From Callorhinchus milii (Eukaryota): a stretch of DNA of 64,000 bases. The notes beneath the pieces were generated by a model. The model made no database searches, was not told the DNA's origin, and worked only from the letters and a program-made list of their open reading frames with translations. The translations under genes were made by a program, and so were the position numbers. The DNA is taken from assembly GCF_018977255.1 (NCBI RefSeq), contig NW_024704742.1, positions 30,692,001 through 30,756,000 on the forward strand, given 5' to 3'. Each line of letters opens with the position of its first letter. Position 1 is the first letter of the stretch. Positions 23,896 to 52,683 of the stretch are shown here, in pieces.

Positions 23896-23960
23896 GCTGC
23901 TCCTGTTTTTCATTAAGAAGAGCAGGTTTCCTTGCAGTCGACACCATCTTTCTGTCAGTT
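23896..23960 (-). CDS. INPP4B: Second coding exon of the same gene, PH domain strands (ERWCRLQGNLLF)
   Basis: Acceptor cattttctcacgcag| and consensus donor AGC|gtaagt. The 65 nt exon starts in phase 1, matching the upstream exon (G|AA = Glu), and encodes ELTERWCRLQGNLLFLMKNRSS, a typical PH motif (RW..L.GN.LF). Confidence 0.85.
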
Positions 23961-25779
23961 CTGCGTGAGAAAATGAAACATTAATAAAATGGTACTTTGC
24001 TGGTGAACGCAAGATGATTCTGAAGGAAGATGCATTAGTAATAAAGGTCAGAGAAGAAAATCATTAGAAAATTCCTGCTCCAGCCAGCAGCTGCATACAT
24101 ATGACAGGCTGCTAAATGCCAGATATCTCCCCAGAAGGCTCTTCTTACCCTGCAGCTGAGAGATTTGGTGACTGCAGCAGAAACCATCTGCTTTTTCATT
24201 GGCTTGCCTTTTCACAGGGAAGAAAAAACAGGAACTTGTGCAATTTTATGTAAAACAAGACTTTTCATAATAATAAAAAGCTGACAATAATGCATTATGC
24301 CACGATAAGCTGTTTTCAGAGTTATATAAATTATTTCAAGTCAGCCAGCCATACAGGCTCAAATACTAATCAACTTTTTACATAGCCATCAGCGTGTTTA
24401 ATTACCATGAGACGCCATGCAAAATCTTCAATACTTTGCAAAAAAAACCCCCTCTGATTTGGAGTAATTCATGTGAAATAAAAAACAGGAAGGCCTCCTT
24501 CAGACATTTTGCACTTATATAGTGAAATTAAAAAGGTTTCAGTTGCTCAGCTGGTCGCACTCTTGCCTCTGAGTCAGAAGGCTAGTTGATATTGACTGTG
24601 GACAGAGATGAATCAATTGTGATCCAAGTAATAAGGAAGCTACAGAAAGAAAATGACAGTTGTCTATTTACACTCACGCATTCCTACAAACTATTGCATC
24701 TATTAGAATTCATACAGATCCTTTTATAACAACAAGAACTTGCATTGACATAGTGCCCTTCATCAGGGCAGCATCTCAAAGCACTTATCAGCGGCTTGAT
24801 GCTGAGCTAGGAAGAGAAAGCAGGTAACCATAAGCACAGGTCGAAGAAGAAGTTCTTCAGGTGTGGTCTGAAGACAGAGAAGGGGGGAAGATGGAGGGAC
24901 TGAGGCAGAGAGTTCCAAACTCTCGGGGTGCAGTGGATGAAAGCACGACTGCTGATGGTGGTAATTCCATTACCCGCTACCTCCACTCAGCTGGTTTGGT
25001 CTCAGACTCCACCACGGTCAAGCTCTCCGGGACTCTTTCCCGCGTGAAGGCCGCTATATAAATGCAAGTTGTTGTTATAGTACTTTGGGAGTTTCTCTCT
25101 GTAGTGATTGCATCATACTGTATTCTCTACTAAGAGCAAGCTCATACTTTATTAACAACAATCTCTCAGCAGTGCTCCTGCAGGTAACGTATGTCTTGCA
25201 CGGTGGTATATATAACCTCCTTGGATCAGTAACTCCCCACCTCCCATTACATTGCATTGGAAATTTAAAGTGTTTCACGGGCCTCAAGACAATGCCAGAA
25301 ATAAATTCCTTTGGCTACTGTGGTACCATTACAACACTGCCGAAATCTCATTTTACGTAGGCATTATTTTTGCAGCTAAATTTATGACCCATTTCCAATG
25401 GGACATAGTTTTCCAGTTACTGTTAGGTTTCCGTTCAATACTGCTTGAAAGAAATAAAATTATAATGTAGAGCCACACAGTTTAGAGCCTGGAAGTATAC
25501 GCGGGCAGTGTACCTGGCATTCTGACTAATATCAGTCCGGAACCTTCCAGCACACACACGTAAATATTTCCTTTGTAAAATAATTGTTATTTTAGATGGT
25601 ATTTTGCACATCAGTATGTTGATCAGCACCTTGGGACGTCCTTCTGACTTGACGGGAGCTATATAAGTTAATTTGTTGTTGTCATTTGATGTTGCCTGTA
25701 TCCCGCTCAGCCACCTTGCCGATCCTTTTCACTCTTCGTGAACTGGATGAATTCAGGGGAGAATTTTTTTTTTCCATTT

Positions 25780-26075
25780 TTATTGCACCGTTAGGACATT
25801 AAAATGTCTCCAATATTGCACTGGGAATTAATGTCAAGAGTCCTGTCTATTTTTGTAGGCAAACATGGCAGTTATTTACACCAGCAAAATCCCACATGAG
25901 GTGAATGACTAATCTATCCAGAGGATTGTGGGCCAACTCTGGGAGAAACTCCCATTGTGACAGAGGATCTTTAACAAACACCCGAACAAGCAGGTGGGGC
26001 CTCAGTTTAACATCTGAACTGAAACCGGCAACTCTGACAGTGCACGCTCCTCCTATATCCAGTGGAGTGTCAGTA
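25780..26075 (-). mobile_element. Older DeuSINE fragment, head-to-head with the 26090 copy
   Basis: ggatctttaac and tggagtgtcag motifs in reverse orientation. Confidence 0.6.
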
Positions 26076-26089
26076 GACAGTAAATTTGT

Positions 26090-26508
26090 CAGCCCTACTC
26101 AGTAAGCAGTACTCTCGTCTCCAAGACAGAAGGTTGTGAGTTCAAGCCCCACGTCAGGACTTTGAACTCACAGTCTAGGCTGACCTCCAATGCAGTAGCA
26201 GGGATGTACTGTATTATCGGACGAGCCGTCTTTCAGATGAGACTGAGGTCCTTCTGCCTGTTCAGTTGTATGTTAAAGATCCCATGGCACTATTGAAATA
26301 GAAAAGGGAGTTTCTTCTGGTGTCATGGCCAAGAATCCCTAAATAAATTTGGTCACGCACCGAATGACTGTTTGTGGGGCATTGCTTTGTGTAAAATGGC
26401 TGCCATATTCACCTACAACACACACAGCGACTGTATTTTACAAAGATTCCTGTGAAACTCTTTGAGCCATCTCGATAAGGGCTATAATCAACGCAAAGAT
26501 TATTATTA
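26090..26508 (+). mobile_element. Older SacSINE1/AmnSINE1-like DeuSINE, about full length
   Basis: Head (cagaaggttgtgagttcaagcccc), central gttaaagatcccatggcactatt motif, Deu core, L2-type tail. Confidence 0.8.
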
Positions 26509-26852
26509 AGTATAAATGTGGAGTACATATCCCATTCTTTGCAGCGTCTGCTCGGGAGGTTTAAAATTTATTTCCAGTTTCCAAGTTGACAAGAAGAAAA
26601 TAAAGTCCCATTAAGTATTAGGTGTCTGTCCTTCATCGAAAAAATGCAATCACTGCATATTTTTGAATATGGATTTTTAAAATATTTCTAGTTATTGTCC
26701 AAGGCTGACATGCTAAACGACAGATTGAGAACAGGTCCAATTATAATAAAATGAGAAAGACTGGTGAGACGCCAAACAGGAAGAAGAAAATGTGCGAGAT
26801 AGAAAGAGGATGTCAAAAAAGAATTGTTTGCCTTGTCACAGGAGTTATTCAT

Positions 26853-27188
26853 TATAATAATCCTCATATTTGATATAGCGCATTATGTCGTTGAGACGTC
26901 TCAAAGCGCTTCACAGAATATACTATAAAGTGAATTGACTATGTATTTTATGGGCGAAAAGCAGCAGAGGATTGAGTGATCAAATTGTTAATATTTAATC
27001 ATTTTGAATGCATTATTACCCCCGGAAAGTGATCCGCCAATAGACGAACAATAGGGTTCTTACTTACTGCTGGGTAAACCGAGGCATGTGGAGTAAGGAA
27101 ACTTGATAAGGTTCCGCCCACCACAGGAATCAAACCCAAGTCCTCTCGTCTGCGAATTGAGTGCTCTAACCAAAATGCTACAGGACTT
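26853..27188 (-). mobile_element. DeuSINE, longer subfamily, diverged
   Basis: Head, extra internal segment and tail are all recognisable. Confidence 0.8.
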
Positions 27189-27564
27189 CACGTTAATGGG
27201 TTTCATAAGATTTGAGACGGTTTCCCAAAAGATTCAAACCAAATAAAACCCAAAGTTTAAAATAAAACTTTAATTTTAAGAAATGTATTCTTGAATATTT
27301 CTAATTTTGTAACTCCCCAAATCACAAATAAATTATAAATAAATCCCTCCGCCACAAAAAAATAGGGGCCACGGGAAATATGTCATGGATACAAAAGCTT
27401 CAAACCCTACAGACCATATAAATTATGGCACCATAAAAGTTCACAGCACAACATCAAAGTGTGGTCGAGTAAAACGATGCATTGATCCACTTACACTTAG
27501 TGCCAGTCTGGTTCAGTTGGTAGCACTCTCACGGGATTTTAGTGTGAATAGAGCGTTTCAAAAA

Positions 27565-29517
27565 TCGCTGTCATCACTCCTATCCTTAAAAAATCCTCCC
27601 TGGACCCTTCTCTACTCCTTAACTACCACCTCTTCTCCAACCACCCTTTCCTCTCCAAGGTCCTGGAATGAGTTGTTGCTTCTCAGCTTCGCTCCTTCCT
27701 CTCCCGCCACTCCCTTCTCGACACCTTCCAATTGGGCTTCCTTGCCGCCCATAGTACAGAAACTGCCTTGGTCAAAGTGACAAATGACATTCTGTCCATC
27801 AGCAACCAGGGCTCCCTCTGCCTCCTCGACCTCTCTGCTGCTTTCGACACTGTCGACCACTCTATCCTCATCCATCGCCTCTCCTCTCACCTCAATCTCG
27901 ATGGCACTGTCCTTGATTGGTTCATATTGTACCTTTCACACCACCTGCACTTCATCTCCTCAAACAGCTTCTCCTCTAGCCTTCGCACTGTCTCATGCGC
28001 TGTTCCTCAGGGCTCTGCCCTTGGTCCCCTCCTCTTCAACATCTATATGCTCCCTCTTAGTGACATCATCCGCAGACATGGGGTCAACTTCCACATGTAT
28101 AATAATAATCCTTGCATTTGATATAGCGCTTTTCACGTCGGGAGGATGTCCCAAAGCGCTTCACAGAACACACTGTAAAGTGAATTGACTGTATATTTGT
28201 GGGCGAACGCGGCAGCCAATTGCGCACAGCAATGTCCCACAAACAGTCGTAGATTGAAAATGACCAATTTATTATTGTTTTTGTTATTTTGCAGGGATTA
28301 TTATTAGGCTCTGTGTGGAATAAGGAAACTTGCCCAAGGTTTCGCCCTGCCTGGATTGAACTCAGGTCTTTCGCTTGCAAAGCGAGTACTCTAACCACTG
28401 AGCTACAGGACTCCACCTCTTCTCCAACCACCCTTTCCACTCCAAGGTCCTGGAACGAGTTGTTGCTTCTCAGCTTCGCTCCTTCCTCTCCCGCCACTCC
28501 CTTCTCGACACCCTCCAATTGGGCTTCCTTGCTGCCCATAGTACAGAAACCGCCTTGGTCAAAGTGATGCGGATGACATCCAACTCTACCTCTCTGCCTC
28601 AACCCTTGACTCCAGGTCCACTGCTGTGCTGACAGAATGTCTGTCAGACATCAAGTCCTGGATGAGAGCTAACTTTCTTCAGTTACCTCGAGGCCTTCCT
28701 GATTAGCTCCCGTCAGCGCCTCCTCACCTCAGGCGCTGACAGCATCACCATCCATGGTTGCACACTCCACCTTGCTAAGCCAGTCCGGAACCTTGGGGTC
28801 TTGTTTGACCCTCAACTATCCTTTCTACCCCACATCTGCGCCATGATCCGCTCTGCCTCCCCCACCTCCGCAACATTGCCCGGCTCCAACACTGTCTCAC
28901 ACCGCAGGCTGCCAAAACCTTCATACATACCTGCATTACATCAAGGCTCGACTATGCATACTCACTGCTTGTCGGCCTCCCCAACTCCTCCCTCCACAGG
29001 CTGCAGATCATCCAGATTTCTACAGCCCGTATCCTCTCCCGCGACCCTATCACCCCCATCTTGCCCAACTCCATTGGCTTCTCATCACACAGAGGATACA
29101 GTTCAAGATCCTGGTCCTCACCTTCAAAGCCCTCCACGGTCTTGCTCCCCCTATCTCTCTGATCTCCTAACCCCTTACCACTCTGTTCACTCCCTCCCCT
29201 CAGCGGGCTCTGGCCTGCTTGACATCCCCCGCCTTGCTCGCTCCACTATCGCCGGGCAGACCTTCCGCCATTCTGCACCCACCCTCTGGAACTCCATCCC
29301 ACAGTCCCTCTGTCTCGCCCCCTCCCTCGCTACCTTCAAAACTCACCTCAAGACACTCCTCTTCGACAGTGCTTTTGATCTCCCTGTCTTCTGCCCCACC
29401 TTCCACCCTCCACCACTCCAACCCTCAGCTCAGGTCCATAACTCTGTCTGTCCAGCGCTTTGGGACGTCCTCCCGATGTGAAAGGCGCTATACAAATGTA
29501 TTTTTTTGTTGTTGTTC
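27565..29517 (+). mobile_element. L2 LINE (RT to 3' tail), interrupted by a SINE plus a duplicated segment
   Basis: HSTETALVKVTND, LDLSAAFDTVDH, VPQGSALGP, split FHMY|ADD, 3'UTR and ttgttgttg tail. Confidence 0.92.
28101..28414 (-). mobile_element. Young DeuSINE inserted in an L2 RT region
   Basis: Near-identical to the copies at 37069 and 59738. Confidence 0.9.
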
Positions 29518-29699
29518 CTGGAGCTGCACTGGTTTCAAGAAGATGTGCTTATCAAAGCCAGATGGATCCAAAGCAACCTATGTGATTATAGAGAGCGGAT
29601 AGAGTGGTTCTAGCAGGACAAGTATACAGGTTATTACTGTCAAGTGTAGTACAATAACAACTTGCATTTATATTGCACCTCACTACCTCTCCAACCTGC

Positions 29700-30012
29700 T
29701 TACACCTTAACCCACTACCTATTGCCTCTACTCGACTGGCACAGGCCTCCTGCTTGTCCCTCGGGCCCTATGTTCCACCATCAGTGGCTGCGCTTTCAGC
29801 CACTACACCCCGAAACTCTGGAACTCTCTCCCTCAATCCTTCCAAATTGCCCAGTCCTTACCCATCTTCAGGTCCCGCCTGAAGAACTTTCTCTTTGACA
29901 AGCTTACAGTCACCTCCCCCTCTCTCCGGCTCAGTGTCAAGCTCCACCAGTATCAAGCACTTTGAGACTCCACCCTGAGTGAGGGGCACTATATAAGTGC
30001 AAGTTGTTGTTA
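29700..30012 (+). mobile_element. Old L2 3' end
   Basis: ccaccatcagtggc...actctggaactc motifs and a gttgttgtt tail. Confidence 0.7.
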
Positions 30013-30646
30013 TACAGTATCTTCGATGTACAGTAACATCTTGAAATGCTTACATATATTGTTTCCTACAAATGCACAGTCACTACAGGTGACCTGAGAA
30101 GAGCTTCAAGACATGTTCAATATCAATATCAGCTCCAATATTAACTGCAAGGATTATTAAGTACTATGCTGTCTAGTAACCAATTGTTCCTCTTAAATTA
30201 AGGCCAAAGCCACATTTAGAGGCATTTAATCTACCAAATATTCCTATCTGTCTGAATTACATGCTGATATGTTTTAAGAAACTGTTTCTTCCATTCATGG
30301 CCGGCCACTGCTGTCTTTACCAATTAAGAACAGCAGTTGCCCCTCCAGCAGGTCATTAACAACACTTCAGTTTGATTATGTAAATTTGTTGATAGCAGAT
30401 ATCTTACAAGAAAGGGAATTCATAGATCTTCCCTTAAATACATGATTGTTTCAGTTAAGTGGAAATGGTTTATGCTGGACTGCAGGAGATGAGGATGCCT
30501 GAATTGGGCTATCTGGACAGATGAGTCAGTTACAATTCATTTTACATTATTGGTTGAATTATTTCAGAAAGCAATATATGATAAATCAAATAGCACTAGG
30601 TCTGCCAGGCTAAGTCAACCCTTAAAATTCACCACAATCAGTACTA

Positions 30647-30743
30647 GGGAGAACCCACTCGTGAGTCCCCTCTCCCCTCAGGAGAACCCATTCATGACTC
30701 TCACTCTCTCCAGGAGAATCTACTTGTGACCTCCCCACCCTTT
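30647..30743. repeat. Degenerate minisatellite, about 32 bp x3
   Basis: ggagaa(c/t)c(c/t)a...gtga/atga units start at about 30647, 30680 and 30712. Confidence 0.7.
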
Positions 30744-31494
30744 CCTTCCCATCAATGCATCAGCAACTGATACCACTCCCCTGGCTCCCTCCTTCCGTAT
30801 CTTCACAAATATCATTCAGATTCATCTACAAGATACACAGCCACATCATTTTACAGGAAATGCTGTGAAGCGCTTTGAGATTTCCTCCTCGTTGTGAAAG
30901 GTGCCATATGAAACATGATGTTTATTAGATCAGATAATAATCCTTGCATTTGATATAGCACCTTATGTCTTTGAGACGTCTAAAAGCGGTTCACAGAATA
31001 TACTGTAAAGTGAATTGACTGTATATTTTGTGGCCGAAAGGATCAAAGTGCACTAGGTGACGTAGTGGGGTTGGGGTACAAAGCCTTTGCCCACCTTTAG
31101 ATCCTTTAGGATAGGATGCATTTCACAGTTCTGCAGTAACTATAGGACGTTGGCTACAGAAAAGAGAGTGGTAAATATCTGCATTTCTGTGTTTCCCTTT
31201 TGTATTTTCTTTTACAACCCATTCATCAGGATGTTATCTTGTCAAAGTACTAAGTTGCTGGAGGAATAAAGCACTGCAGATGGCAACATAAACATGAGGG
31301 TAAAGATTACATGCTGCCTAATCCCCAGAGGCCAATATTATGCTGGATATTTTGCATTAGCCATGTGATGACTGAAATGAATGTAATATCATTTAATGTC
31401 AAAGGCCACAGGCATCCAATCAACAGATGCCAGGCTGATATTGTATTCCTTTAGCAAACACACCTGAATCATGTTGAATACGATTTTGTTTAAA

Positions 31495-31775
31495 ATCCTT
31501 TCATTTGATATAAGCTTTTCACATCAGGAGGATGTCTCAACATTCTTCACAGGATTTACTCTCATTTGTAGTGACTGTGTGTATCTTGTAGGCAAATGTG
31601 GCAGTCAATTTGCACACAGCAATGTCCCACAAACAGCCATGGAGTGTATGACCAATTTTTATTTGGGGGATTGTTGTCCAGGATATCAGCAGAAACTCCC
31701 TTCTCTTTTTGAATCTCCCATGGGATCTTTAACAACCATCTGAACATGAACAGACTTAACGTCTCATCCAATTGA
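31495..31775 (-). mobile_element. Older DeuSINE
   Basis: Tail, Deu core and catgggatctttaac. Confidence 0.75.
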
Positions 31776-32964
31776 TGGGGAGGAGAAGGGAGAGGGGATT
31801 TGAATGACACAATCTCACAGCAAATGCTGAGTTGGTAGTCGTGGATTCAAATCATTCCTGTGTTATTGTGGTAAGGTGTGAATCATTTCATGCTGTTGGT
31901 TCAACAGAAATTGACTCTAAAAACAAACTGAATTGTATAAACCCTGGTTTCAGGCTCATAATTGCCAAATGAATTGTGCTGTTGTCAGCCTGCCCATTCC
32001 ACCTGATGGTGGTCTGCAAGCTAACAATTCTGATTCCTCAACACTGAACGCTAATGGTCTTCGGAGCCAGTTAATGGAGGTGGCACATAAATCGCCTCAA
32101 ACCCTCCCTCCTCTGCAAATGAAATTTTTGAGCAGTAAATATAAATTTCCTTGATGCAATTTGCCTTTCTGCTTGAAGTAATTTCAAATTCAAATAAATA
32201 AAAGAATAATAATTTGGTCACTGAATCCACGTGGCACACTGCTGTTCCAATTGGCTGCCGTGTTTTGCCCACAACATATACAGTCAATTCACTTTACAGT
32301 ATATTAAGACGCTATATCAAATGCAAGGATTATTATATTATAATTTCAAATTGCTTCCAACAGTATAATTAATACAATCTGCCCCAACAACTGGCTGCAT
32401 TGATACTTTCAGTTCACCAGCAGTAATTCCAGTCATTGATGGAGAACACATGAAGTTGCATTTGTACCACTGAAAATATCATCCTAATTAATTATAATTA
32501 AGTGCTATGTTCCAATTCAAATGAGTGATAACATTTCTGGCCATCAGATTTTCTCCTTCAAGAGGTATAATTTAATAAGCTAATGTAATTATTAATCTTG
32601 ATTCTTGATATAGTTCCCTTTACATCAGGAGGACATCTCAAAACTCTTCCTAAGTTTCACTGCAAAGTGGGTACTATTTTTTTTGTAGGCGAATAGACCT
32701 GTTTGGCACACCAAGATGGTTGCATCACCTGAACCCATCTTTCTGTCGATCCATCAAAAATCACACTCTCGAATGGTCTGATGTCACACCAATCCTGTAA
32801 GAAATGTGCCCTACTGCAACCCATCATCCACTTCAAACCCATTTGTTACACAGCCTACAATACCTGCCTTGATAACTTTACTAACAGTCAATAGCCTGTC
32901 AATCTGAGACGTGCAGCTTGGCAATCCACCTCATTGCCCCCCCCCCCCCCCCCACAACCCCTGA

Positions 32965-33220
32965 TTAGGTTTAGCTGGTTAAACTCCAGCAATGGTTACT
33001 CAGGGATTCCCCAAGTATTGGTTCTTGCCAACCTGTGCTTAATACTCTACACTAAGAATTGGGTAGGTAGGTAAGCAAGGTGCATCCCTCCAGAGAGAGA
33101 GAGTGCAATGTGCAGGGGAATTTCCATGGCATACAAATGTGGAATTCTCAATCTGGTCTGGATTTAAGCATGGTGATGGGTTTCCACATGAGTCAGAATC
33201 CTGACTGACCAAAAGAAAAT
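32965..33220 (+). mobile_element. Diverged copy of the poly(A) retroposon
   Basis: tggtgatgggtttccacatg...ctgaccaaaagaaaa 3' end. Confidence 0.7.
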
Positions 33221-34879
33221 TAATTTTTAAAAAAACAATTTTGATTTAATATGTGCCAACGTAAAAACAGATCAGTCCATTGGCTCCACCACTTGGAACA
33301 ACACACAACAATGCTTTCCAAAACCTCCTGAAGTGTGGACCCCACAGACTAGAAATGTTATCACCCGTTTGAATGCCACAGGTTGAAACCCTGCAATTTC
33401 TTTTTTTTAAATATATAAACTGGTGCTGGCGCAAAATGTAATTTGCAAGACTTTGTTTTCTCCAGCTCAAACAGAATACAGCCCTTCACCCTTTTCCAAC
33501 CCTTATAAGCAGCATTGTATTCATTTATTCTATGTGGGTCATCACAATCTCATTACTATTCTTAAAGTCACGTAAAGGATACCACAAGTAGAACATAAAA
33601 CAGATGAACTATTGTTATGTACAATAGCGACCAGCACTAATACTATCATGTCACTGAAATAGAAAAGGGATGTTTTTACTGGACCATAATTTGACTTAAT
33701 TTCACCTTCTCTAATGATATCAATACATCATTGAAACAGAAAATGGGAAGTTTCTAACTGGAACAGCAGAAGCAGCATTCACTTAAACTATTAGACAAGA
33801 GCACACCACACAGCATACTGGTTGAAATACACACAATATGTTCATCTTTTAAAAACAATTCAGATTGCAGGAATTAAAGTTGCCCAAATGCAAATCAAAT
33901 CAAGCCCATTGCTATCTTAAATTCACTCCTCCCCTCCCCCACATTATTTATTTCAAGTCAAACCTGTGCTTCCCACATCAAGCACCATCATCAGGCGATC
34001 TCCTGGCACTCTATAATCGGTCACTAGATGACAAGCATGAGTGATTTCTTACTTTCCAGGAACACACAACTGATTCAAGCACAGCCCAAAGCACAAAGTG
34101 TATTGGAACAAATGCTTTCAGTTCAAGTTACGTTGACCTGAATGAAATGTAATCTTGTATGGTTGACGGTATAAAACAGTGTATTAAGACAAATAGAACT
34201 GATAATCTCTATCCTTCCACGTGTCACAAAGCTCAATACCCAATCACACAGGTATTTAGCAGACCCTTACCTTTAACCTTGTCCCACACTTATCCTGCTC
34301 CACTTAATGTGTCACAGCCTCCACTCTGTTTACCAATTGCATTCTCAGACTCTGCACACCAGCTTCTAACAGAATGCTCTGCAGACTGACTCAGACAAGA
34401 TCCTTGACTGTCAGTTTCAGCACAAAATAATATGTTTAATCCAAGAATATAATAATAATTCTTGCATCTCATACAGAGCCCACAAAATACAGTCAATTCA
34501 CATTACAATATATTCTGCGAAGCGCTTTGAAACATCTCAATGACGTGTTAAAACGTCCTCCCGACATGAAAGGCGCTATACAAATGTAACCTTGTTGTTG
34601 TTGTAAAGCATCTCAATGATGTGTTAAGATGTTATATCAAATTCAAGGATAATTACTATCATCATGCCATTAAGATGTCTCAAAGTGCTTATAAGATATA
34701 CTGTAAAGTGGATTGACTGTATTTTGTGATTGAATGAGGATAATGAAGTTTACAAGTTTACATGCTTTTTAAAAAAATTCTGAGTTTTTTTTATAGATTA
34801 CTCCACTGGTATTGGCAAAAAATGTTTTAGTAATAAGCTGGGCCAATAGAAAAGTGTGGTGGCACTTCTCTCTATATGG

Positions 34880-35085
34880 ATTTGTGAGTGTCTGTGTGTG
34901 TGTGTCTCTCTCTGTTTGTGAATGTCTGCATGAGTATGTTTGTGTCTCCCTCTCCTCTGTATGATTGTGGATGTACCTGTGTGTGTCTCTCTGTATGTTT
35001 GTGAATGTCTCTGTGTGAGTGTACGTCTCTTTCTGAGAATGTGTGTGTCTGTGAGTGTGTGCGTCCCCCTCTCTCTCTGTGTCAT
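34880..35085. repeat. Compound (TG)n/(TC)n low-complexity tract
   Basis: Seen directly. Confidence 0.85.
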
Positions 35086-35087
35086 GG

Positions 35088-37905: not shown

Positions 37906-37944
37906 GTCAATTCCCTCCTTTTTTTCCTTCCCTATCCCTCCTGA

Positions 37945-40065: not shown

Positions 40066-40154
40066 ATGACCCAAGGAAACATCCATCAAACTATAGATAT
40101 TCCTCCAATATGACTGAAAGCGATCGGGGGTGGGGATTGGGGAATAGCATTGCA

Positions 40155-40268: not shown

Positions 40269-42279
40269 TAATTGCATAAAATGTGAGGTATTTGCACGTT
40301 GGATTTATGATTCACTCAGGTTAGCTGATCTCACAGAAGTGAAGCTATTTTGTTAAGTGAAGCTATTGGCCTCCAAAACAGCAACTACAGTTTCAAGTTG
40401 TTAATGTAATCGGAGCTCCAGCTACTCTGTGTGGGCGGCTTAACTGCAAACCGTCAAATTCTGCAATGCAAAGGTTATGCTTACTGATGAGAAAAAGTTT
40501 CATACAAACAGAATTTGAGCAACAAAAGTGCATTTACTTTGAACCTTTAAATTAATATTCCCAGTTTATATTGCTTTTGTAATTACACCTACCAAATACA
40601 CAGTCACTAGACATGACAGTGAATCCTGTAATATAATAATTATATAATATAATCAAATGCAAGGATTATTACTATATTCTATTAAGCACTTGAGTTGTCC
40701 TCCCGACGTGAAAGGCACTATACCAAACATATGGATTATTATAACTATTAGAATAATTACAAATGTCATATTTCCCAGTTGTGATATTCCACCTGCATAA
40801 CATGGAGTAGATGATTATTTTAGATCTGGAAACAGTTCATTTAAGGAGAGGTTATTTCACCATGACCATTCTGCATTTAAACTGCAGTAGAATTTTACAC
40901 AGCAGTCTCCTCAGCTACTGTTGGGGATCTGAAACAATTCAGCACCATTGAAGAGCACAGTGTCCTACTGGAAGAGCTGACACATGTTGTTGCGTTCCAC
41001 AACATAGAACCACCCAGACAGCAGGGGAGTGAAGTGGTGCAAAGTGGGTTATAAATATACTGGATGTGTCTTGAATCAATTCCCATGAAAAGTAAATAAA
41101 GGTTTCGTGCTTTATTTTTTTAAAAATTAGATACACATAAATCAACACATTTAATGTTACATACAACACCATAGGATACAGAGCCCAAGAATATCAGATG
41201 GATCCTGCAGTTACAGCTGTGAAATTGAGGATACATCAAACTCACCCCAAATCAGTTGACTTGACTGCTGCAAGTAATTGAGGCCTCCTATAAATTATTT
41301 CACAGCTCAGAAAGCAATTTCTGCACAGCCAACGTCCTCCTCCTTCTTCTTGCATTAAATGTTTCCACAGCTTTTTCCCCTTTGTCTGTCACTTTGTTCA
41401 GTATACCCAGCACTAGACATTACTATTCTATTGTGATGACAATACTTTTCTAATGGAACTGACTTGAAATAAAAGCAAGCATCTCATTTCAAACAAATAA
41501 ATAAATGAATACAAATCTCGGCTCCTTCAATGACTCGATGAATTTCCTCAAGGACCTGCTGAGTTGCCGAGCCCTGGAAACACTCCATGTTTGATCTCCT
41601 ATCTGTGCCGAGTCAGCTAATTCAAGTTCTGGCAGCAGTAGGAGAGCTCAAATTGGTCTTTTTGCTCAGATTACTGAAAGTTAAAAGAAATTCCTTGAAG
41701 CAGGATTTACACTTCTATTGCATCTCGTGCTGCAAAGTACATGAATGTAGACACTGGGAAAGACACCCCCCACCCCCCCCCCCCACCCCCATGGTCAAAC
41801 ATCCTACTGACCGACACTCGGCATGAAGCTCACACAAAAGTAATGATCACTTGGATGAAATTGCAGAGGGCGTCCATGGTCCATGAAACTTTATCCCAGT
41901 TAAAGAAAAAATGAGTCAAACACCCATTTGGAGTAGAGAGGAGGAGGATGAGAGGGAAGACAATTGAGAAGCGATTAAAAGAATAGAAGCAATATCATGA
42001 ATACACACACACATTATCATAAATGACTTGAAGTGTAAAGGTGGCATTCTATGTTCAACAAAAGCTGTAAAAATTGATTTTGCAAAATCCTTTGACGAGA
42101 CTTGCAGTGTGTAGGATTAATTCCATTCCCCAGGTGAGCAATCACTTACATTCAATAAACCTATTCAAATTCAACCATTATATATAAAGTTTTGCCTCTC
42201 TAAGTGTCATTCACATTTGCTACCCGCACTCCTCCCCCCAATTCCAACCCTGTCAATCCATGCATTTTATTGAAAGGTA

Positions 42280-42482
42280 ACCTCTCGACTCTCTTCCCCC
42301 TCCTCGCTCCCTCCCTTCCCTCCCCTCACCCTGACCATTTCCCCCCTCCTCGCTCCCTCCCCTCCCCTGACCATTTCCCCCCTGCTCGGGTCATGACCCA
42401 ACTGTGCAGCGCCTTGGGACGTCCTCCTGACGTGAAAGGCGCTTTATAAATGGAATCTTGTTGTTGTTGTTGTTGTTGTTGT
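42280..42482 (+). mobile_element. Young L2 3' end with an internal tandem duplication
   Basis: Near-identical to the reverse complement of 7628-7790; a cctcctcgctccc...gaccatttccccc unit is present twice. Confidence 0.85.
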
Positions 42483-45400
42483 AACGTTCTTTGTCTATTT
42501 CTTTGATGAAAGAGTTTAGAATATTGTTGTTGATTTGTGAGTGTGCTAACGCACCAATGATGTTGGGGTGGTTAAATGCTCCTATTTATCTTACTATAGA
42601 AAATTATTACCATTATCCAAAATGAGTTATTCACAGCTGTTTGTGGGAGGAACACGGCAGCCAATTTGATCACGGTAATGTTCCACACACAGCCATGAAG
42701 TAAGTGACCAATTTTCGGAATGAGAAAAAACTCCCTTCTCTTTTCATATAGTGCCATGGGATCTTGTAACGGCCACCTGAACAGGTAGACGGGACCTCTA
42801 CCTGTTCACGTCTCATTTGAATGTCGTCGCCTCCATAATTTCCAAGTTGCAAGTCAGGAGTGTCTTACTGCAGACTTGGTGCAATGAGACCAACTGTAGC
42901 TCTCCTACAATTGCTCAGACTAAGGTGAGCTAACTCTGTTTACCTTGAAGATAGGAATGAAGACCCACGACCAGAGATGTTTATTCCCTGAATAAACAGG
43001 GAACAGTTTTATTGATGCAAAATAAACACAAACATGTTTGGACTACAAAGTATCATTAATTCTCCCCCACCTTCAGAGGACTTTGAGTGGTATGTTAACT
43101 GTAATCATGACTCATCCAATTCAGGATCCAGAGGCATGAATTGATGGATGCACCTTATCAGCAGAAACCAAACTCTTTTATTCACTCTTTAGGGATATCA
43201 AACGATCTTAGCAGATTTAAAACTTTGCAACACAGCTTTGTGGACTGACTATCTCCAAACCCCAAAACTGTCATCTTTGCAACATCCAACAATATGTCTA
43301 AACCAGTAACCAACACTTGTGACAGATGTGTGTCAGTTCACAAGCAACTCAAATGTTTTCTGCCCAGATCAAAGAAAGACTTTACTGTAAACACAATGCA
43401 CCTCTACAACACAAATTAAGGAGACCATCTATATTCTACATTACGTTTTATATGCATCTTACCAGGATATTACCAGCAATGCAATTTCAATGTTTTAAAA
43501 AAAGCAAATTGAGTTTTAAGTAGTGCCTAGAATTTACGCAGAAGCAGGACAGAAACAGGCCATTCGGCCCAACTAGTCCTTGTTGATGTTTATACTCCAC
43601 AAAAGCCTCCACCCTTTGTAATCCCCTCAAAAACATTTTACTTTAGAACAAACACACTCATACTTTCCAATTAAAAGCAGCTCTAAAAGTTTAATCTGTG
43701 GCTAATTTAAAGAACCCATTTGGCTTTCATTTACTTACAATAGTCACTTCCCGGAGTGGCAAAATATTTCCTTGTATATCATTGGTCAGACAACTGGCAG
43801 TAATGAAGATAACCCAAGATCTATATGATCAGGTAGCTCATTAAAATACTAACAAAGGCTTCTCTACAATGCAAGACAGATATTATCAGAAAACCAATAA
43901 TTGAACAATTAAAACGAGAGCACACAATGAGCCGCCCAGCGCAGACAGTGTCTCGATAAAGCTAAGCTTGACATTGAATGTGTCCTTATACAATCAAAAA
44001 CTAATAGGGTGACACAAGGCAGTACAGTAAGCATCTTGGGACATCCTCCGTGAAAGGAGCTATATAAATGTAAATCTGTATTACATTGTCGTATTTACCA
44101 TCATTAAAAATGCTGAAATTCAAAATAAAAACTAATCATATGAAGTTAGCAAATTCTGATAATACAATACAATTTACATTTATACAGTGCCTTTCAAATT
44201 GGGAGGATGCCTCAAAGCCCTTGACAACAACAACAACTTAAAATTTAGCTTAGCATTTATATAGCGCCCTTCATGCAAGGTAGCGTCCTGGAGCGCTTGA
44301 CATTATTGGCTGGGCATCTGAGATGGAGGTGGGAGCCAAAGAGGGTGGGGAGGGAAAAGATGCCTGAAAGCGCAATCAAAATGGGATGTCTTGAGACAGA
44401 TGTTGAACAGGGGAGGGAGGGAAGGAGTGGGGGAAGGAGGGAATCAGAGAGTGAGTCAGAGACCAGGGCATAATGGCTGAAAGCTCATCCTCGGAGTAAA
44501 ATGATGAGAGTTAAACTAGGGAACTGATGAAATAGAATCTGAGTACACAGACAAGGAATTTTCCAGGCTCTATTATAACAGATTTATTTTTAAAAATCTT
44601 GATTGTGAATATCCTGAGCCTCATGATAGATTAAATGTATAAAGTGAGTTTCCAGCGCAAATTGAAAACAAATCAAAACAAATTATCGACAGAAGCACAG
44701 TTAGAATAGATTACATAAAGTATCTGCAACAGAATTAAACCAATTCACAACCACACCATTCACCAATGCAAATCTGAGGCTGCTGCAGGCAACTGCTGTT
44801 ACATATCTGAGAGGTGAAACAGCTTTGTTTGCTAATGCTGAATAGTTTTATGTTAGTAACTTACATTTATCAGGGTCTGCAGGAAGTCCTGTGCTGCGCT
44901 AAAGTTGTCACTGAGTACACCACATGGGTATGAGCACAGCTTAGAATATTAGCGCACAACAGTTGTTCTGACTGTGGTACACCAAGGCTTTGCTTGTACT
45001 GCAGTATTGTTTCCCTCTGAATTCAGTCTCAGCTGATTCACCCCCTGCAATGCTTTCCATATACATTACGCCTACAACAATAATAATAGTTGCATTTGAT
45101 AGAGTGCCTTTCATGTCAGGATAACCTCTCAAAGCACTTCACAGGATTTACTGCAAAGTGCAGTGACCGTGGATTTTGTAGTTGAACTTACAAAAGTATA
45201 ACATTTATCAATACAACCTGGGAATATAGATTTGAAGGTTCAAAGTAATTGGTGTATTTTAAAAATAAAGCTCTGTTTGCGGTAAACATTTTCTCATCAA
45301 TAAACATTAGGGTGTAGGAAAAACAGTTCAATTCAAATTTTGGAGCAAAATTACAATGACCAAATCAGTTACTGTTGCAATTCCCCAAAGTCCTCATTTA

Positions 45401-45739
45401 CTTTCATAAATTATAAAAGAAGAAGGAGAAAGGATGAAAAGGCCAGTCACCCTGGGCTGCTCTCAAACACACCCCTCTCAGCCTCCATTCTTGCAAAACA
45501 GAACCTTCTTCCTTTTGCAAACATTCAAAGCTGATCAATTTGCAATATGCACAGAACAGCCAACTGCTCTTCACAAAACAAATTAAGAGGAAAGAAAAAG
45601 GCTGAAATATCACACGTTGAAGCCCGTACCAGCTCCAGGTGTCCAAAAATCATACATCACAAAAGGAAGCGATTCAACCCAGCTGAAAGAGCTATCCATT
45701 TTATCTCATTCTCCTGCCTTTTCCCTAAACCCTTTCATA

Positions 45740-46420
45740 TTCTGCACCCTGCTCTCTGGAACTCCATCCCAGAGTCCCTCCAACTCGCTCCCTCTCTCCA
45801 CTCTCTCAAGGCACGTCTCAAAACGTGTGTCTTTCGGTCATCTTTCCCCTTCCCCACTCCACTCAGCTCCCCAGCTCAGGAGCCTATCCAGCACTGTGAA
45901 TGCGCTTTGAGACATCCTCCCGATATCAATGTAAAAAAATGTAAATCCAATTACAGTAATTCAAAACTCCACTGACCGTATACTGACCCATATCAAACTC
46001 CGCTCCCCCCGTCACCTCAGTCCTTGCCAAGCTCCACTGGCTCCCTATAGCAGAATGCGTCAATTTCAAGATCCTCACTCTTACTTTCAAATCTCTTCAC
46101 GCCCTGGAAACTCTCAAGCTCTCCAACCCGCTTACGCCTCACTCTAATATCTGGTACCTTCGCTCAACCATCCCATGTCTCCTGCACGTCCCTCGTCCCT
46201 TCCCGTTGGTGGCCCCACTATGCCCCAAAACTCAAACTCGCTGGCTTAATTCCTTCCCTTGCCCTCTCCTTGCTGATCTTCAGATCGTACCTGAAGACCT
46301 TCCTCTTCGACCATGCCTATGGTCATTTCCCCTCTCCCCCAGCTCAGGGTCAGGCTCCACCACTGTTAATGTCTTCCGGACATGATAGGCGCTATGCAAA
46401 TGTAATTTGTTATTGTTGTT
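45740..46420 (+). mobile_element. Two tandem L2 3' fragments
   Basis: ctctggaactcc motif, LAKLHWLP-type coding remnant and tails. Confidence 0.7.
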
Positions 46421-47502
46421 AAACACTCCAATATGTTACTCTGGGTGAAGAGTGCTTTCTAAATGCAAGTTGTTGTTGTAAATTGTATATTACTCTTTTT
46501 CAGATCTTTATCTAATTCTCTCTTAAAAGCGAATAGGTCCTCTGTTAAATACTGAGGTTACGCAGTTGCTCCAGTTCTGGCATCAAAATGTTGCTACTGA
46601 TGACGTGTTACTTGCTCTGAGACACTGGGTTCCTCCAGGTGCCAGACTAGAGCTGACAGAATATAACTCCAGCTCTATTATCTTGGGTGAGCTTTGAAGA
46701 CTCAGCAGTGGAAGCAGCTGCTTCAAGCTTAAATCCAGCTGGGTAGTCGTAATACTATATAACAAAAAAAGATGTCTTTGAAATCCATAGAGTGGAATTT
46801 ATTTCCAATAAACTCAAGGGAAAGAGAAGTGAAAAAAAAGTTATAGCATCTGAAACCCATGAGCCCGGAGGCAATGGCAAAAACTCGGTCGATGGTGTAA
46901 TAAACTAACGATGGTGCACACACCATAAATGAGGTAGGCCTGGTGCATGTTAAAGCTACAAATGTATGCTGTGTGAATCTTACGAACAGTTCCACTGGCA
47001 ACAGTGCTACTGTGTGAGTTAAACAAGGCTCTGTGCACTATGGAGTCATGTCATCACGTATATCCTGCACGCTGGAATTGTACATGGAAAAGTCAGTACG
47101 GAAAGACAAGGTCGGTTTGAATTTGAAGACCGTTGGGCCATTTAATCTCATATATACCACAATATAAACCCCAACCTATTTGAAAGTCAACCAGTTTGAT
47201 ACTTGGGCATCTGCTACCCTTCCTGTTCCTGAAAATTGTGCAAGGTGTTAATTATCCTTTGTTATGGCACAAATATAAATCAAACATAACGACCACAGAA
47301 ACAACAGCAGCCAACTTTGCACCAACACGCACCTCCTAGCATTTGTTCCCACTTGGGTCAAAGTGTCACCATTATACTTTGTACAATTATTTGAGCAGCT
47401 CTTTCCAAAAAACCAGTGAAGTAAAACATTCTTCAGTGTAACCTTTCTGCTTACTCTGCTCAGTGATCCAAATTGTCTCAGTGAAACACTTTAAATGAAT
47501 GA

Positions 47503-47772
47503 TAATAATAATAATAATAATAATAATAATCCTTGCATTTGATATAGCGCTTTTCACGTCGGAAGGACGTCCCAAAGCGCTTCACAGAACACACTGTAAA
47601 GTGAATTGACTGTAAATTTGTGGGCGAACGCGGCAGCCAATTGCGCACAGCAATGTCCCACAAACAGTCGTAGATTGAAAATGCCAATTTTATTATTGTT
47701 TTTGGTTTTTGGAGGGATTATTATTAGGCGTGTGGAGTAAGGAAACTTGCCCAAGGTTTCGCCCTGCCTGGA
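47503..47772 (-). mobile_element. Young DeuSINE, 5'-truncated within the tRNA head
   Basis: Tail and core match the young copies; similarity stops at gccctgcctgga. Confidence 0.9.
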
Positions 47773-48186
47773 TGATACTGCACACGTGTAAGAAGTTGCC
47801 TTCTTATCTGCCATGGTTACAGAACAAGGGTGCCATGGTCTTAATTTGGAAGATTAGTGAGAAGGTGTGAACTGCCTCTGCATCACCTGCCTGGGAAACA
47901 AAATGTAGGCAGTAAGAGGCAGTGGGCCATTCATTTTATTTTACCATCCACCTCCCAACCTCAAAACTCATCCTCAGAGAAGGGGCACTATAAATCAAAA
48001 GAACATTCCAGCTTATTAATTTTTTTTTAGTTCAGTTATGGTCTGGGATTTTCTTCAGTGGCTCTTCACTCACCAGAAGTCTCATTAGTCAGCCTTTTGA
48101 AGCAAGAAATAATAATCCTTGCGTTTGACACAGCGCATTATCAGGCCATTGAGACCTCTCAAAGTGCTTCACAGAATTTTACTGTA

Positions 48187-49370
48187 TTCCAAATCTACCC
48201 ACTCTCCCTGGTATAATAGTCACCTCCGCTCCCTCAAAACAAAAATGCAGATACTCAAGCGCAGATGACATAAATCCAGTCTCTCAATACACCACCTGCT
48301 GTGGATCGAGGATCTCCGTAACTATCTCCTCTCCGCCTCGCAGGCCTTTTACTCCAAAACCAAAAACAACCCAAAGGCACTATTCTGCACCGTCCATCAC
48401 CTCCTCCGCCCAGGCCCCCAAGCTGCCTCCATCTTCAATTCCAATGCCAAGTACAAAGAGGTCACAGACTTCTTTGTGTCAAAGATTGAAAATATTTGCT
48501 TGGCTGCATCCTCCTCCCCTACATCCCCTATCATTCCCTCCTCCCTAAACTTTGCCCCAATTATTCCCCCCCTCCCTCTCAACTACCATCTCCCAGATGA
48601 AGCCCACTACTTGCTGCCTTGATCCCTACTCACCCAGTTGCTGGTCATCCAACTTCCCTTCCTCTACTCACTGCTGGCCGAAAGTCAACCAGTTGCTCTC
48701 CTCAGCTTCTGTTCCTCTCCCGCTTAAAACCGTTGCCATCACTCCCTCCTCAAAAAACCCACCCTTGACCCCTCCAACCTTACAAATTACTATCCCATTT
48801 TCAACCTGCCCTTCCTTGCCAAAGCTCTGGAACATGTTGCCACTAATCACCTTTGCTCACACTTCTCCCTCCACTCCTTTCTCGAGCCCCTCCGGTTTGG
48901 TTTCCGTCCTACCAATAGCACAGAGACGGCAGTTGTCCAGGTCACAAATAATACCTTCTCTCTCTGTGACCAGGGCTCCCCCTGCCTCTTTATCCTCCTG
49001 GATATCTCTGCCGTGTTCGACACAGTCGACCACGCATTGTTACCCATTGCCTCTCCTCCCTCATCCACCTCAGTGGGACCTCACTAGCCTGGTTCGAGTC
49101 CTACCTAACAAACCGCCTTCACTTTATCTCCCGGAAAGCAATCCACCAATCGGCTAACAATCGGGTTCCTATTTACTACTAGGTAAACAGAGACCCCTTG
49201 CCCCCCTCACTCCCCACCTTCAAATCCCGCCTAAAGACCTTGATCACCTAAGGAGATGATCGTGCTTACAGTCACCTCCCTCTTCCTTCTCCCCTCCCTC
49301 TCCCCCTGCCTCAGGGTCAGACTTCACCATTGTCAAGCACTCCGGGTCACTGCCCCGCATGAAGATTCAC
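48187..49370 (+). mobile_element. L2 internal fragment and 3' fragment, interleaved with SINE pieces
   Basis: MKPTTCCLDP and LLDISAVFDTVDH-type remnants; 3'UTR at 49193-49370. Confidence 0.8.
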
Positions 49371-50857
49371 TAAGAGAAAAGTGGGATTTGTTCACATACA
49401 GCACTGTGTGCTTATTATCAATGGATAAGTTTTGCAAGGAAAGTCTTCATTTTGTGCAACTGAAGTTCCAACCAGCGGAATAAATAAGATGGCTGGTTAA
49501 TACGTAAGAGAACAGGATAAGTTTTTTTTCCCCCCGTCAGAAATAGAATCACACAGGACTGTAAGCTAAAAAGCAATTTTTGAAAAAAACCTATTGAAAG
49601 ATTTGATGGAAGGATAGGGAAACCTGCCTATCTTTTGTAATGCAGTTATTAAAGTGTACAGGAACATTTGCCTGCGTCTCTTTGATAAGATTTTTTGCAG
49701 CATTCAGCACAATTTAGCTCCAGCTGTCACAGTTGGATCAAAAGAGGGTTTATAGTCATGGATTCAATCTTTACATTTGTTACTTCAATGAAAATTCCTA
49801 AAGTACATTTGCAACCAATTTCTATGAATCCAAGTTTGCAGTTATTTAAATGTAATGTACATGGGATTGTGTACAGTATATGTCTCTATATATATACACA
49901 CACACTGAAGCTGGTTACTGTAGCTTGCTCATCTCTGAAAAAAGTGTATTAGTTGCAGATAAAGCAATAGCACAGTGAATGATGGCAAACTCTAACTTCT
50001 GTCGTGCAACAATATAGACAGATTAGTGCAATTGAGAGTTATCTTTATCACTAAATCATAATCATCATTCCTCAGATAGGATGTACACAAATGGCCCGAT
50101 GTGGAGAATAACAAATATCTCTGAGGGGGGAAGAGGGGGCTACTCATTAGTGTAAACAAAAAGAGGGGAGGGTAAGAGAGCGGGAGGGAGGAAGAGATAG
50201 AAGGGAAAAGAAAAGGAAAACAAAATGTAACCAGAGACACTAAAATGGGATACAGTTTGCTTTTTAAGAAAATACACACCAAGGGTTTACCTCGAAAAAT
50301 AAAATAAAAGTTGTCTAGAATTTGTTTTCTTGTCAAATACTGAACCACCTCCGCCTCGCCCCCTCCCTTGCTGCTTCAAGTCCTGTCTCAAGATCCTCCT
50401 CTTCGACCAATCACCCTCCCGAATATTAAAATCTGCCTCAAGCACGTCAGATGACACCAAGTTGCAAGTACAAGGGATTAGTCATTTGCAAGTCACCTGG
50501 ATTGCAAAATTGCATTACAATGTTAAAACTGGTCCTTTTACTTTAATATAAAGACTGAAGCTCCTGGCTATGGTTAAATTTTTCAGGCTTTGTTGCTGGC
50601 GGCAGATATCAATGGCCTGTGCCCTCAGTGCAGTAAATGATTAAACTAATATAATTTGATCACCACACCGTCCAAATGATAATCCAGTGGGGGAAAAACA
50701 CAACATAGTCCTGCACCTCTTTATTTGCGGTAATACCTAAGAGGTGTATATGTTCAAATGATCGTGGGTTAGTATAGATAACAGTTTGAATTGTATCAAA
50801 GTTGATGACAACTGAAGAAAGGATATGAAGGCATGAGCAGATAAGTCTCAGTGCCCG

Positions 50858-50900
<43 letters not shown>
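50858..50900. repeat. (TC)n(AC)n microsatellite
   Basis: Seen directly. Confidence 0.9.
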
Positions 50901-50905
<5 letters not shown>

Positions 50906-52489
50906 AGACACAGCAAAAACACTTCTAGAATGAAAAATGCAGGGCTAATTATATAATCAAATTAAACTCATTAAAAGTTAATGTGATTCATGCTGCTATT
51001 AATATGAATATTAATATTTTGAGGAGTGAACCATTCATTTTCGTCCACAAAATACAGTCAATTCACTTCATGGTATATTCTGTGACACACTATATCAATG
51101 CAAGGATTATTATTATTATTCAGCACCATATATAAGCAAAATGTATTCTTCACACAGATATGCCCTGAAACAGATATGTTCTCATTGTGTCTTTAATACT
51201 CAACATTTTTTGGTTTGGATTTCACTTTAGAATCTCCAAAAGTCCCTCTAGGGTGAAATGTCATTAACATAATGATTTAAGAATTCAGATTACACGTCCA
51301 ATTAACCAACTCAGAAAGATGGAATCATCCTTGATTCAATGCAAAGTGTGAAAAGATCGAGAAGATTTTTAGAAAAGCAAGGAATGGGTAAATCACATTC
51401 AGCCCATCAAGCTCACTTCATGCCCAGACCATATTGATAACTACTTTAATGTGCAGCAGAAATACAACCTTAATCTTGATGTATTTCAAGTTTCTTAGCA
51501 CTACAGGGCGTCTATAATTTGGCAAATTCTTTAATACAGTCTCAATTTTGTTTTCTGTAAATCCTGTAAATAATGAATTATTCATTATTTTTAGTATTAG
51601 TATTAATATTATTCAACGAGTTGCCAAGTTCCTCACATACTGAAACACTAAGAAAATAGAGAATCTAGACCCAGGTGAAACTTCTCTCCTCATGTGTTTT
51701 ATTATACACATTCCAATCTCCCAGGGAAGGGGCCATACTCCTTGATCTCCAAAAGGTAACTAAACACTACTACACAATGAGGTTTAAATGTGCTATTCCT
51801 GCTTTGCTTTTTGCTTGGGTGCAAACCCCTCATTTTCCAGCGCCTTGGAGCATCCTCCCAATCTGACAGGCTTTTATAAACGCAATTTGTTGGTGTTGTG
51901 CCTGGCCAAGAAGCAAAACTCCAGCTCCAAGGCAGCCTTTTGCAACTGCAAACACCTCCCCCTCCATCTCAACCTGCTGAGCTACAAAATCACGGAAACT
52001 CCAGAAATAAACAAGTCCCACTCAACTCGGCTCAACAGATTCGCTGTGGCAAAGCTGTACTGTGTGAGCAAAATGTATAATCCCACAAACATGAAAAATG
52101 ATGCTTTTTGAAAGACAGGTATCACAGAGTGAGGTAATAACTGGTAATATACATCTCAAGCCTCTGTGAATTGTCACAAACTTCAGACATCAGAATACTT
52201 AAGTTAAATAGCAAGTTTATAAATCTTTCCTGAGTATCCATTAATCTTTATGTTCAAGAGCTTTTTTTTAAAAAAAACAATACCTAAAGATAAGCAATGA
52301 TGCCCAATGTAAAACCTTCCTTTCCAGCATGTTAATATAATTGTAAATATAAAAAAGATAAATCCACCCTCTCTGGGGGGAGTGAGGGGAGGAGGAGATT
52401 AAAGTTTCCACTGATTAATACTGCCCGATAATCTTAAACATACACACACAGACATACACAGATACAAAAACAAATGCATTGAATTTAAC

Positions 52490-52607
52490 CTTGTGGTCTT
52501 CTCCAGTTAGCAGTGGATTTCCTGCACATCTTCAACGCACCCTCCTTCTCAAAGCAGAAAGGAGGCCTCCGGGCCAGAGCCCGCAAAGCAGATGAGTTGA
52601 ATCTCAT
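52490..52607 (-). CDS. INPP4B: First coding exon of an INPP4-family (inositol polyphosphate 4-phosphatase) long isoform, start of an N-terminal PH domain; INPP4B more likely than INPP4A (tentative)
   Basis: The 118 nt from ATG (52607-52605) encode MRFNSSALRALARRPPFCFEKEGALKMCRKSTANWRRPQ plus G, ending at donor CAAG|gttaaa (phase 1). The MRFN...LA..P...FEKEG.L pattern matches my recollection of the arthropod INPP4 N-terminus (MRFNKQEL...FEKEGLL) and PLEKHJ1 (MRYNEKELQALSRQP). The paralog choice rests only on the very large introns. Confidence 0.75.
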
Positions 52608-52683
52608 ATCATAACCAGTGTGATGAAATGGAAGACGAAGCCGGAACACAATGTGGCAGTCAACACAGCGACGACAGATCCAA
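52608..52683 (-). other. Probable 5'UTR part of the same exon
   Basis: Acceptor-like ggttctgtgtttgcag| with AG at 52685-52684, 76 nt upstream of the ATG. This implies an upstream non-coding exon that I could not locate. Confidence 0.45.

Follow-up and report, generated by a model that had tools for sequence, protein, structure and literature searches.

INPP4B exons in the window

A stretch of 64,000 nucleotides (nt) of the Callorhinchus milii genome, called the window here (G000:C1:30692001-30756000 of a 991.5-Mb assembly; plain numbers below are window positions), was found to carry two small minus-strand exons with which, judged by sequence comparison, the coding sequence of INPP4B, the type II INPP4 orthologue, begins. 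The start-codon exon of the long INPP4B isoform occupies 52490..52683 (-), with the acceptor tgtttgcag|TTGG at one border and the phase-1 donor |GTTAAA at the other. It is split into a 5' untranslated region (UTR) part, 52683-52608, and a coding part, 52607-52490, of 118 nt (39 codons plus 1 nt), which opens with an ATG at 52607-52605 (-) and by itself translates into 39 amino acids (aa). The second coding exon, at 23896..23960 (-), has 65 nt, is entered in phase 1 and left in phase 0, and is bordered by the acceptor tctcacgcag and the donor GTAAGT; its own translation of 21 aa contains the ERWCRL and GNLLFLMK strands of a PH domain. When the two coding parts (118 + 65 nt) were joined by script, they gave 61 residues with 0 stops. 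Between them lies intron 1 (23961..52489, -), 28,529 nt long, which holds reverse-transcriptase fragments of long interspersed nuclear elements (LINEs) and copies of short interspersed nuclear elements (SINEs) derived from transfer RNA (tRNA). The initial 23.9 kb of intron 2 (107,201 nt in total) takes up positions 1..23895 (-), and the next exon lies outside the window. The coordinates, phases, and splice signals of the exons, the length of intron 1, and the in-frame join of 61 aa had all been proposed in an earlier note on this DNA and were reproduced from the sequence. A minimal upstream open reading frame of two codons, ATG-ATA-TGA at 52604..52612 (-), was read straight from the sequence; its stop overlaps the main ATG, and less of the long isoform might be translated as a result.

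The window was searched by tblastn with the long INPP4B isoforms of sharks and rays. Only the positions of exons 1 and 2 were matched, and no further INPP4B long-isoform match was detected in the window at an E value below 0.04. For exon 1, identity was 62% with Cetorhinus (E 1.6e-9), 56% with Amblyraja, and 49% with Chiloscyllium, while exon 2 was matched at E 2.4e-11 by Cetorhinus and with 85% identity over 27 residues by Chiloscyllium. With P0013, the long isoform of Cetorhinus, as query, a genome-wide search produced 39 matches, 23 of them on C1, 14 on C4 (INPP4A), 1 on C8, and 1 on C2, and in this search exons 1 and 2 were recovered at E 8.1e-5 and 3.4e-6, respectively. All 23 matches on C1 were on the minus strand and collinear with the query, running from residues 1-42 (C1:30744482-30744607) to residues 989-1037 (C1:30387808-30387954), so the INPP4B coding sequence spans approximately 357 kb of this strand. 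The catalytic motif of INPP4, CKSAKDRT, which is of the CX5R type, lies at C1:30399206-30399228 (-), approximately 317 kb downstream of exon 2; a pattern search of the whole genome with CKSAKDRT gave 2 matches (C1 and C4), and the reversed-pattern control gave 0. The gene on C1 is INPP4B, since the translation of the catalytic exon that holds CKSAKDRT is 100% identical to three clusters of C. milii INPP4B proteins. The proposed assignment of both exons to INPP4 is upheld, because they share contig and strand with 21 more collinear INPP4B exon matches and with the CKSAKDRT exon. Chance open frames with splice-like borders would be the simplest alternative; both exons are short and neither has a Pfam match alone, but the E values of 1.6e-9 and 2.4e-11 obtained within the window, the collinearity with the 21 additional exon matches, and the existence of spliced contigs with the exact borders of exon 1 (see below) make this explanation so improbable that we count it as refuted.

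A second INPP4 gene, INPP4A-like, was located at G000:C4:76632110-76682111 (+), with the catalytic exon CKSAKDRTAMSITLEQC. A PH-type exon near INPP4A on C4 was not detected with either the shark or the mussel query; short exons are easily missed by such searches, and we therefore draw no conclusion about PH exons of INPP4A.

The PH domain and the four exons that encode it

Two exons outside the window were found to complete the PH domain. Exon 3 (C1:30608694-30608610, -, 85 nt, cccacag|AAG ... A|gtgagt) lies approximately 107 kb downstream, and exon 4 (C1:30588619-30588407, -, 213 nt, gtgcag|CT ... A|gtaag) lies approximately 127 kb downstream, which makes introns 2 and 3 107,201 and 19,990 nt long. 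The borders are AG/GT and the phases are compatible (1 after exon 1, 0 after exon 2, and 1 after exon 3), and the four exons joined by script gave 160 residues with 0 stops. Residue 135 of this join is the Met (MEIG...) that starts the recorded short protein P0005, and in exon 4 this internal Met is preceded by 44 open codons that fall within a match 77% identical to the shark protein. At the level of the reading frame, the PH exons continue into INPP4, as had been suggested: the open frame runs through all four exons and reaches the annotated start of the short protein. The 61 residues encoded in the window had been described as a PH-like N terminus; this description holds, but they cover the N-terminal helix and the PH domain up to about its middle, the rest being encoded by the two outside exons.

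The Pfam PH family matched the orthologues P0013, P0009, and P0042 with 44.9, 40.9, and 38.2 bits, respectively (cut-off, 25.1), and covered residues 20-118 in the shark. The joined C. milii peptide (residues 1-160) was compared with other proteins by phmmer. Its score was 253 bits against Cetorhinus P0013, 166 against Corvus, 83 against Lampetra, 65 against a sea urchin, 64 against a tick, 44 against a mussel, and 30.4 against sesquipedalian-1 (Ses1) of C. milii, while the best of 200 shuffles of the peptide reached 7.1 bits against Ses1. A search with the joined peptide had been put forward as a check; in the phmmer comparison the peptide scored 44 to 253 bits against PH-bearing INPP4 proteins and 30.4 bits against Ses1. 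A protein database search with the exon 1 peptide extended by two upstream codons returned 2 candidates sharing words with it, none at E <= 10. The C2 domain was detected by Pfam at residues 42-143 of P0005 (23.3 bits; cut-off, 22) and at approximately residues 176-277 of P0013 (25.7 bits); the short protein P0005 contains this C2 domain and has no Pfam PH match. The layout of the long isoform is PH-C2-phosphatase, because the PH domain encoded by the four exons precedes the C2 and CX5R phosphatase parts.

An AlphaFold model of the orthologue P0013 was built with an alignment of 14 rows. In the model, a short N-terminal helix is followed by strands at residues 20-29, 42-49, 52-55, 67-70, 74-78, 86-91, and 98-101 and by a helix at 105-118, a block whose predicted local distance difference test scores (pLDDT) are 49 to 81, and then by a linker helix at 120-139 that contains the internal Met. 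The PH region is the best-modelled part, and the seven strands and C-terminal helix of a PH fold are seen in it; the Trp of the GDWIAAL segment is present in C. milii exon 4. Where strand 2 begins, the aligned N termini of C. milii and sharks have TERW, and those of gar, birds, and lizards have RERW. When the PDB was searched by sequence, no significant relative of the INPP4 PH domain was found (best, 2cof, E 0.049). For the phosphatase part of INPP4B, the only solved structures with similarity were those of the C-terminal IP4P domain of P-Rex1 and P-Rex2 (PDB 7syf, 6pcv, 8tua, and 9zq7; E 5.7e-27 to 9e-22). These two proteins are Rac exchange factors, with a PH domain that differs from that of INPP4B in both type and position.

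Transcript evidence for the start-codon exon

Sequencing runs were compared with the stretch 52470-52760. Two of them, X1 and X2, which are RNA by guess, contained 0.67 of the sampled words from this stretch, and four genome-sized runs contained all of them. Contigs were placed on positions 52001-64000 of the window. In a 4,329-nt contig from X1, letters 54-250 matched 52490-52686 with 0 differences, and in a 510-nt contig from X2 the same positions were matched by letters 151-347, again with 0 differences; both contigs extend beyond the match at both ends. A contig from the DNA-like run X3 was unbroken across 52144-53208. Since the X1 and X2 contigs break at 52490 and at approximately 52683 where the X3 contig continues, both ends of the exon are splice borders, the donor at precisely 52490 and the acceptor at 52684/52683; the 3 additional matching letters at 52684-52686 (CAG) fit both the end of an intron and the typical end of an upstream exon. 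The contigs carry from 53 to 163 letters upstream of the start-codon exon. This exon cannot be the first of the transcript, because a leader of at least 163 nt lies elsewhere. The earlier note had put the exon at 52607-52490, which holds for its coding part; the acceptor at 52683 and the upstream letters in the contigs show that the transcript starts further upstream. No joint leading from 52686 to an upstream leader exon was present among the 15 joints listed (there are 1,648 further ones), and no CpG-rich stretch was found upstream of the exon within the window, where the best observed/expected ratio, 0.79, was at a SINE. An older run, X8, also taken to be RNA by guess, had a depth of 0 in the bin with the exon and is uninformative either way.

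Downstream of the exon, the X1 contig extends from the 52490 donor for another 4,079 nt. The remaining coding sequence comes to approximately 3,008 nt, as calculated from the exon lengths and the 907-aa P0005, and the extension therefore suffices for this sequence plus a 3' UTR. The X2 contig has 150 nt past the donor, which equals 65 + 85 nt, the lengths of exons 2 and 3; this agreement is suggestive only. A check against RNA had been proposed for the junction from 52490 to 23960, and it yielded exact splicing at the 52490 donor, while the partner at 23960 was not observed within the placed region.

These data bear on the possibility that the window exons form a separate upstream gene encoding only a PH domain, or that their transcript joins another gene. 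The contigs as placed do not show which exons follow 52490, and the next match after exon 2 is 107 kb away, both of which such a gene would accommodate. Against this, phases and frame are compatible with a join to exons 3 and 4, the annotated start of INPP4B lies within exon 4, the same N terminus is found inside INPP4B in 57 database proteins (see below), and the 4,079 nt of the X1 contig past the donor leave room for the approximately 3,008 nt of coding sequence and the 3' UTR. We therefore consider a separate gene or a fusion to another gene highly improbable.

Several observations weigh against the assignment of these exons to a long INPP4B isoform. Runs X1 and X2 are RNA by guess, they come from one study, and none is recorded as RNA; no contig or read was observed across the 52490-to-23960 junction in an alignment that covers 52001-64000; and the donor after exon 1, GTTAAA, is a weak one. 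When single C. milii exons were compared with Pfam, the window exons matched no family and exon 4 matched PH with 12.3 bits (cut-off, 25.1). The P0013 model as a whole is poor, with a mean pLDDT of 43. Finally, the RLQGN segment in exon 2 (23896-23960, -) has Gln at a position where Lys is otherwise invariant (14 of 14 long isoforms in the alignment). The same column is mostly Lys or Arg in the alignment of invertebrate INPP4 proteins, and the Gln is, from these alignments, a change specific to this lineage, within a strand that is otherwise strongly conserved. With these points taken into account, we put the probability that the window exons start a long INPP4B isoform of PH-C2-phosphatase layout at approximately 0.9.

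In this long isoform, transcription would begin at a distal promoter beyond the window, and the second or a later exon, 52683-52490, would carry the start codon. Splicing would then proceed from 52683-52490 to 23960-23896, C1:30608694-30608610, and C1:30588619-30588407, and the four exons would encode the N-terminal helix, the PH domain (approximately residues 20-118), and the linker helix containing the internal MEIG Met. After the linker would come the C2 domain, then a helical middle region, and finally the phosphatase domain of the CX5R type. The PH domain may act as a second membrane- or partner-targeting module, and the use of the distal promoter versus an internal start may decide whether the enzyme carries it.

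The window also contains repeats. Very high summed contig depth was recorded at 59600-60400, 54001-54400, and 57201-58000 in all four runs (up to 4.3e5 in X1 and 1.9e6 in X3), and depth this extreme indicates a high-copy interspersed repeat. An Rfam tRNA match at 59744-59806 suggests that the repeat at 59600-60400 is a tRNA-derived SINE, and further tRNA-like Rfam matches were found at 1595-1666 (-), 14246-14302 (-), 28342-28412 (-), and 37076-37138 (+). Open reading frames resembling LINE reverse transcriptase or endonuclease are present in the introns at 27672-28121 (+), 35377-35820 (-), 37524-37931 (-), and 21092-21568 (-), and are by their appearance ordinary retroelement debris.

Distribution of the PH-first layout and its meaning for INPP4

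The recorded INPP4B proteins of C. milii form three clusters with 12 sequences of 641 to 919 aa. None of the 12 contains any of the 6-residue words of exons 1 to 3, and the long isoform is thus unrecorded for C. milii in that collection. The current RefSeq protein for the C1 gene, XP_007895837.2, has 743 aa, while older models have 907 to 919 aa; as it starts at MGETENEE, after the C2 region, it lacks both the C2 and the PH domains.

PH-bearing INPP4B proteins are recorded for other vertebrates. A search with residues 1-135 of P0013 returned 57 proteins at E <= 0.001 among 126 candidates: 9 from cartilaginous fishes, 4 from ray-finned fishes (Amia, Lepisosteus, Acipenser, and Conger), 6 from lizards, and 38 from birds, with 0 from mammals, 0 from amphibians, and 0 from C. 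milii itself. A PH domain is precomputed for many INPP4B proteins of 966 to 1070 aa, which come from sharks, rays, gar, bowfin, and eels. In its first 120 residues, the C. milii sequence was 79% identical to that of Cetorhinus, 71 to 72% to those of two rays and a carpet shark, 59 to 62% to those of gar, bowfin, and sturgeon, 52% to that of Conger, 52 to 59% to those of birds and lizards, and 29.5% to C. milii Ses1. The long isoforms of the cartilaginous fishes are computer-predicted records. They share the PH-C2-phosphatase order with C. milii and are 71 to 79% identical to it over this stretch, they have Lys in the RLKGN segment where C. milii has Gln, and those of Cetorhinus maximus (isoform X1, P0013), Amblyraja radiata (isoform X2, P0009), and Chiloscyllium plagiosum (isoform X2, P0031) have the M-x-F-N start found in C. 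milii.

These comparisons also bear on whether the PH frame is a decaying, untranslated relic within a non-coding 5' leader of the short isoform. A relic would account for the finding that every one of the 12 INPP4B proteins on record for C. milii begins at the internal Met or downstream of it, for the two-codon upstream reading frame that overlaps the ATG, and for the Gln in place of an otherwise invariant Lys. It is nevertheless very unlikely, since the frame is open for 160 codons over four exons, the protein it encodes is 52 to 79% identical to those of sharks, rays, bony fishes, and birds, far more than unconstrained DNA would retain over such distances, and its start Met is aligned with the starts of 11 of 13 aligned orthologues, the other two being lizard proteins with four extra residues before it.

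A profile built from 14 long isoforms was then compared with a wider set of proteins and matched 2,945 representatives at E <= 0.001. From 150 of these, 22 were picked: those whose match starts at profile positions 1-5, others of approximately 1,000 to 1,230 aa, and two top matches. Of the 22 picked INPP4 representatives, 19 had an N-terminal Pfam PH match (E <= 0.01), which was above the cut-off in 17. Ten of them were looked up, and these comprised the mussel Potamilus, the snails Nucella and Candidula (with Bradybaena in the same cluster), the spider Oedothorax, the tick Hyalomma, the sea urchins Lytechinus/Strongylocentrotus, the lamprey Lampetra planeri, the teleost Collichthys, and two nameless entries. 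In the Potamilus, Nucella, Oedothorax, Hyalomma, Lytechinus/Strongylocentrotus, and Lampetra proteins, an N-terminal PH domain is followed by the C2 and phosphatase domains, as in the C. milii long isoform; unlike C. milii INPP4B, these are products of a single pre-duplication gene, and their sequences are more distant (44 to 83 bits to the joined peptide). Motifs common to the aligned INPP4 N termini were an MRFN start, (D/E)KEG, ERWCRL-GNLLF, and a W..AL..AS helix. Because the N-terminal PH domain is found in molluscs, arachnids, sea urchins, and lamprey, PH-C2-phosphatase is the ancestral animal layout of INPP4. An ancestral type of INPP4 PH domain had indeed been proposed, and its presence in 19 of 22 representatives, spider and tick among them, bears this out.

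The PH domain had also been called Sesquipedalian-like, and this label proved apt. Outside INPP4, the PH part matched a single gene of this genome, Ses1 (PHETA1) on C8, which is 29% identical to the shark query, and the score of Ses1 with the joined peptide, 30.4 bits, compares with at most 7.1 bits in the 200 shuffles. The PH part of mussel INPP4 matched the same gene with 36% identity (E 5e-15), and Ses1 itself has a Pfam PH score of 78.8 bits. The joined C. milii peptide and Ses1 are 29.5% identical and have an MKFN start in common, but Ses1 is a 286-residue single-exon adaptor that has neither a C2 nor a phosphatase domain, unlike INPP4B. Ses1 uses a C-terminal motif, one that INPP4B lacks, to bind the 5-phosphatases OCRL and INPP5B. 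The sesquipedalian-1 gene is a single exon on G000:C8 (+), L029 1417-2277, and its 286-aa product is an exact match to XP_007900453.2.

In one review (PMC5301276), mammalian INPP4A and INPP4B are described as having a C2 domain, a PEST segment, and a C-terminal phosphatase domain, with no PH domain described there. The mammalian proteins belong to the same family as C. milii INPP4B and have the same C2 and CX5R parts, whereas the C. milii long form has approximately 134 extra residues before the internal Met. The start of the human protein matches the MEIG start of C. milii P0005. A loss of the PH domain in mammals fits the count of 0 mammals among the 57 database proteins, a count taken from protein records with no mammalian genome searched. 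A literature search, at the level of result listings, produced no account of an N-terminal PH domain of INPP4, and a conserved-domain model named PH_INPP4A_INPP4B presumably exists.

A broader scheme, which we think unlikely, would make the N-terminal module of INPP4 and the PH domain of Sesquipedalian/PHETA sister modules, with PH-bearing INPP4B steered to the endosomal membranes or partners of Ses and OCRL. The mammalian enzyme without a PH domain would then be a truncated derivative starting at the internal Met of the PH-C2 linker, and the long 5' part of the mammalian INPP4B gene might still contain traces of the PH exons or encode a rare long isoform.

The PH-C2-phosphatase layout is already predicted in database proteins of many animals and is not new, which limits the value of the finding; what is new is small, namely, the missing 5' part of the INPP4B gene model of one species. 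The two window exons nonetheless correct this model in a reference cartilaginous fish. They also place the C2-first textbook layout of a tumour-suppressor lipid phosphatase as a derived, shortened state, with a mammalian loss that fits the database counts, while cartilaginous fishes, several ray-finned fishes, birds, and lizards retain the older PH-first layout. A comparison of the long and short forms within one species would offer a simple route to the role of the lost domain.

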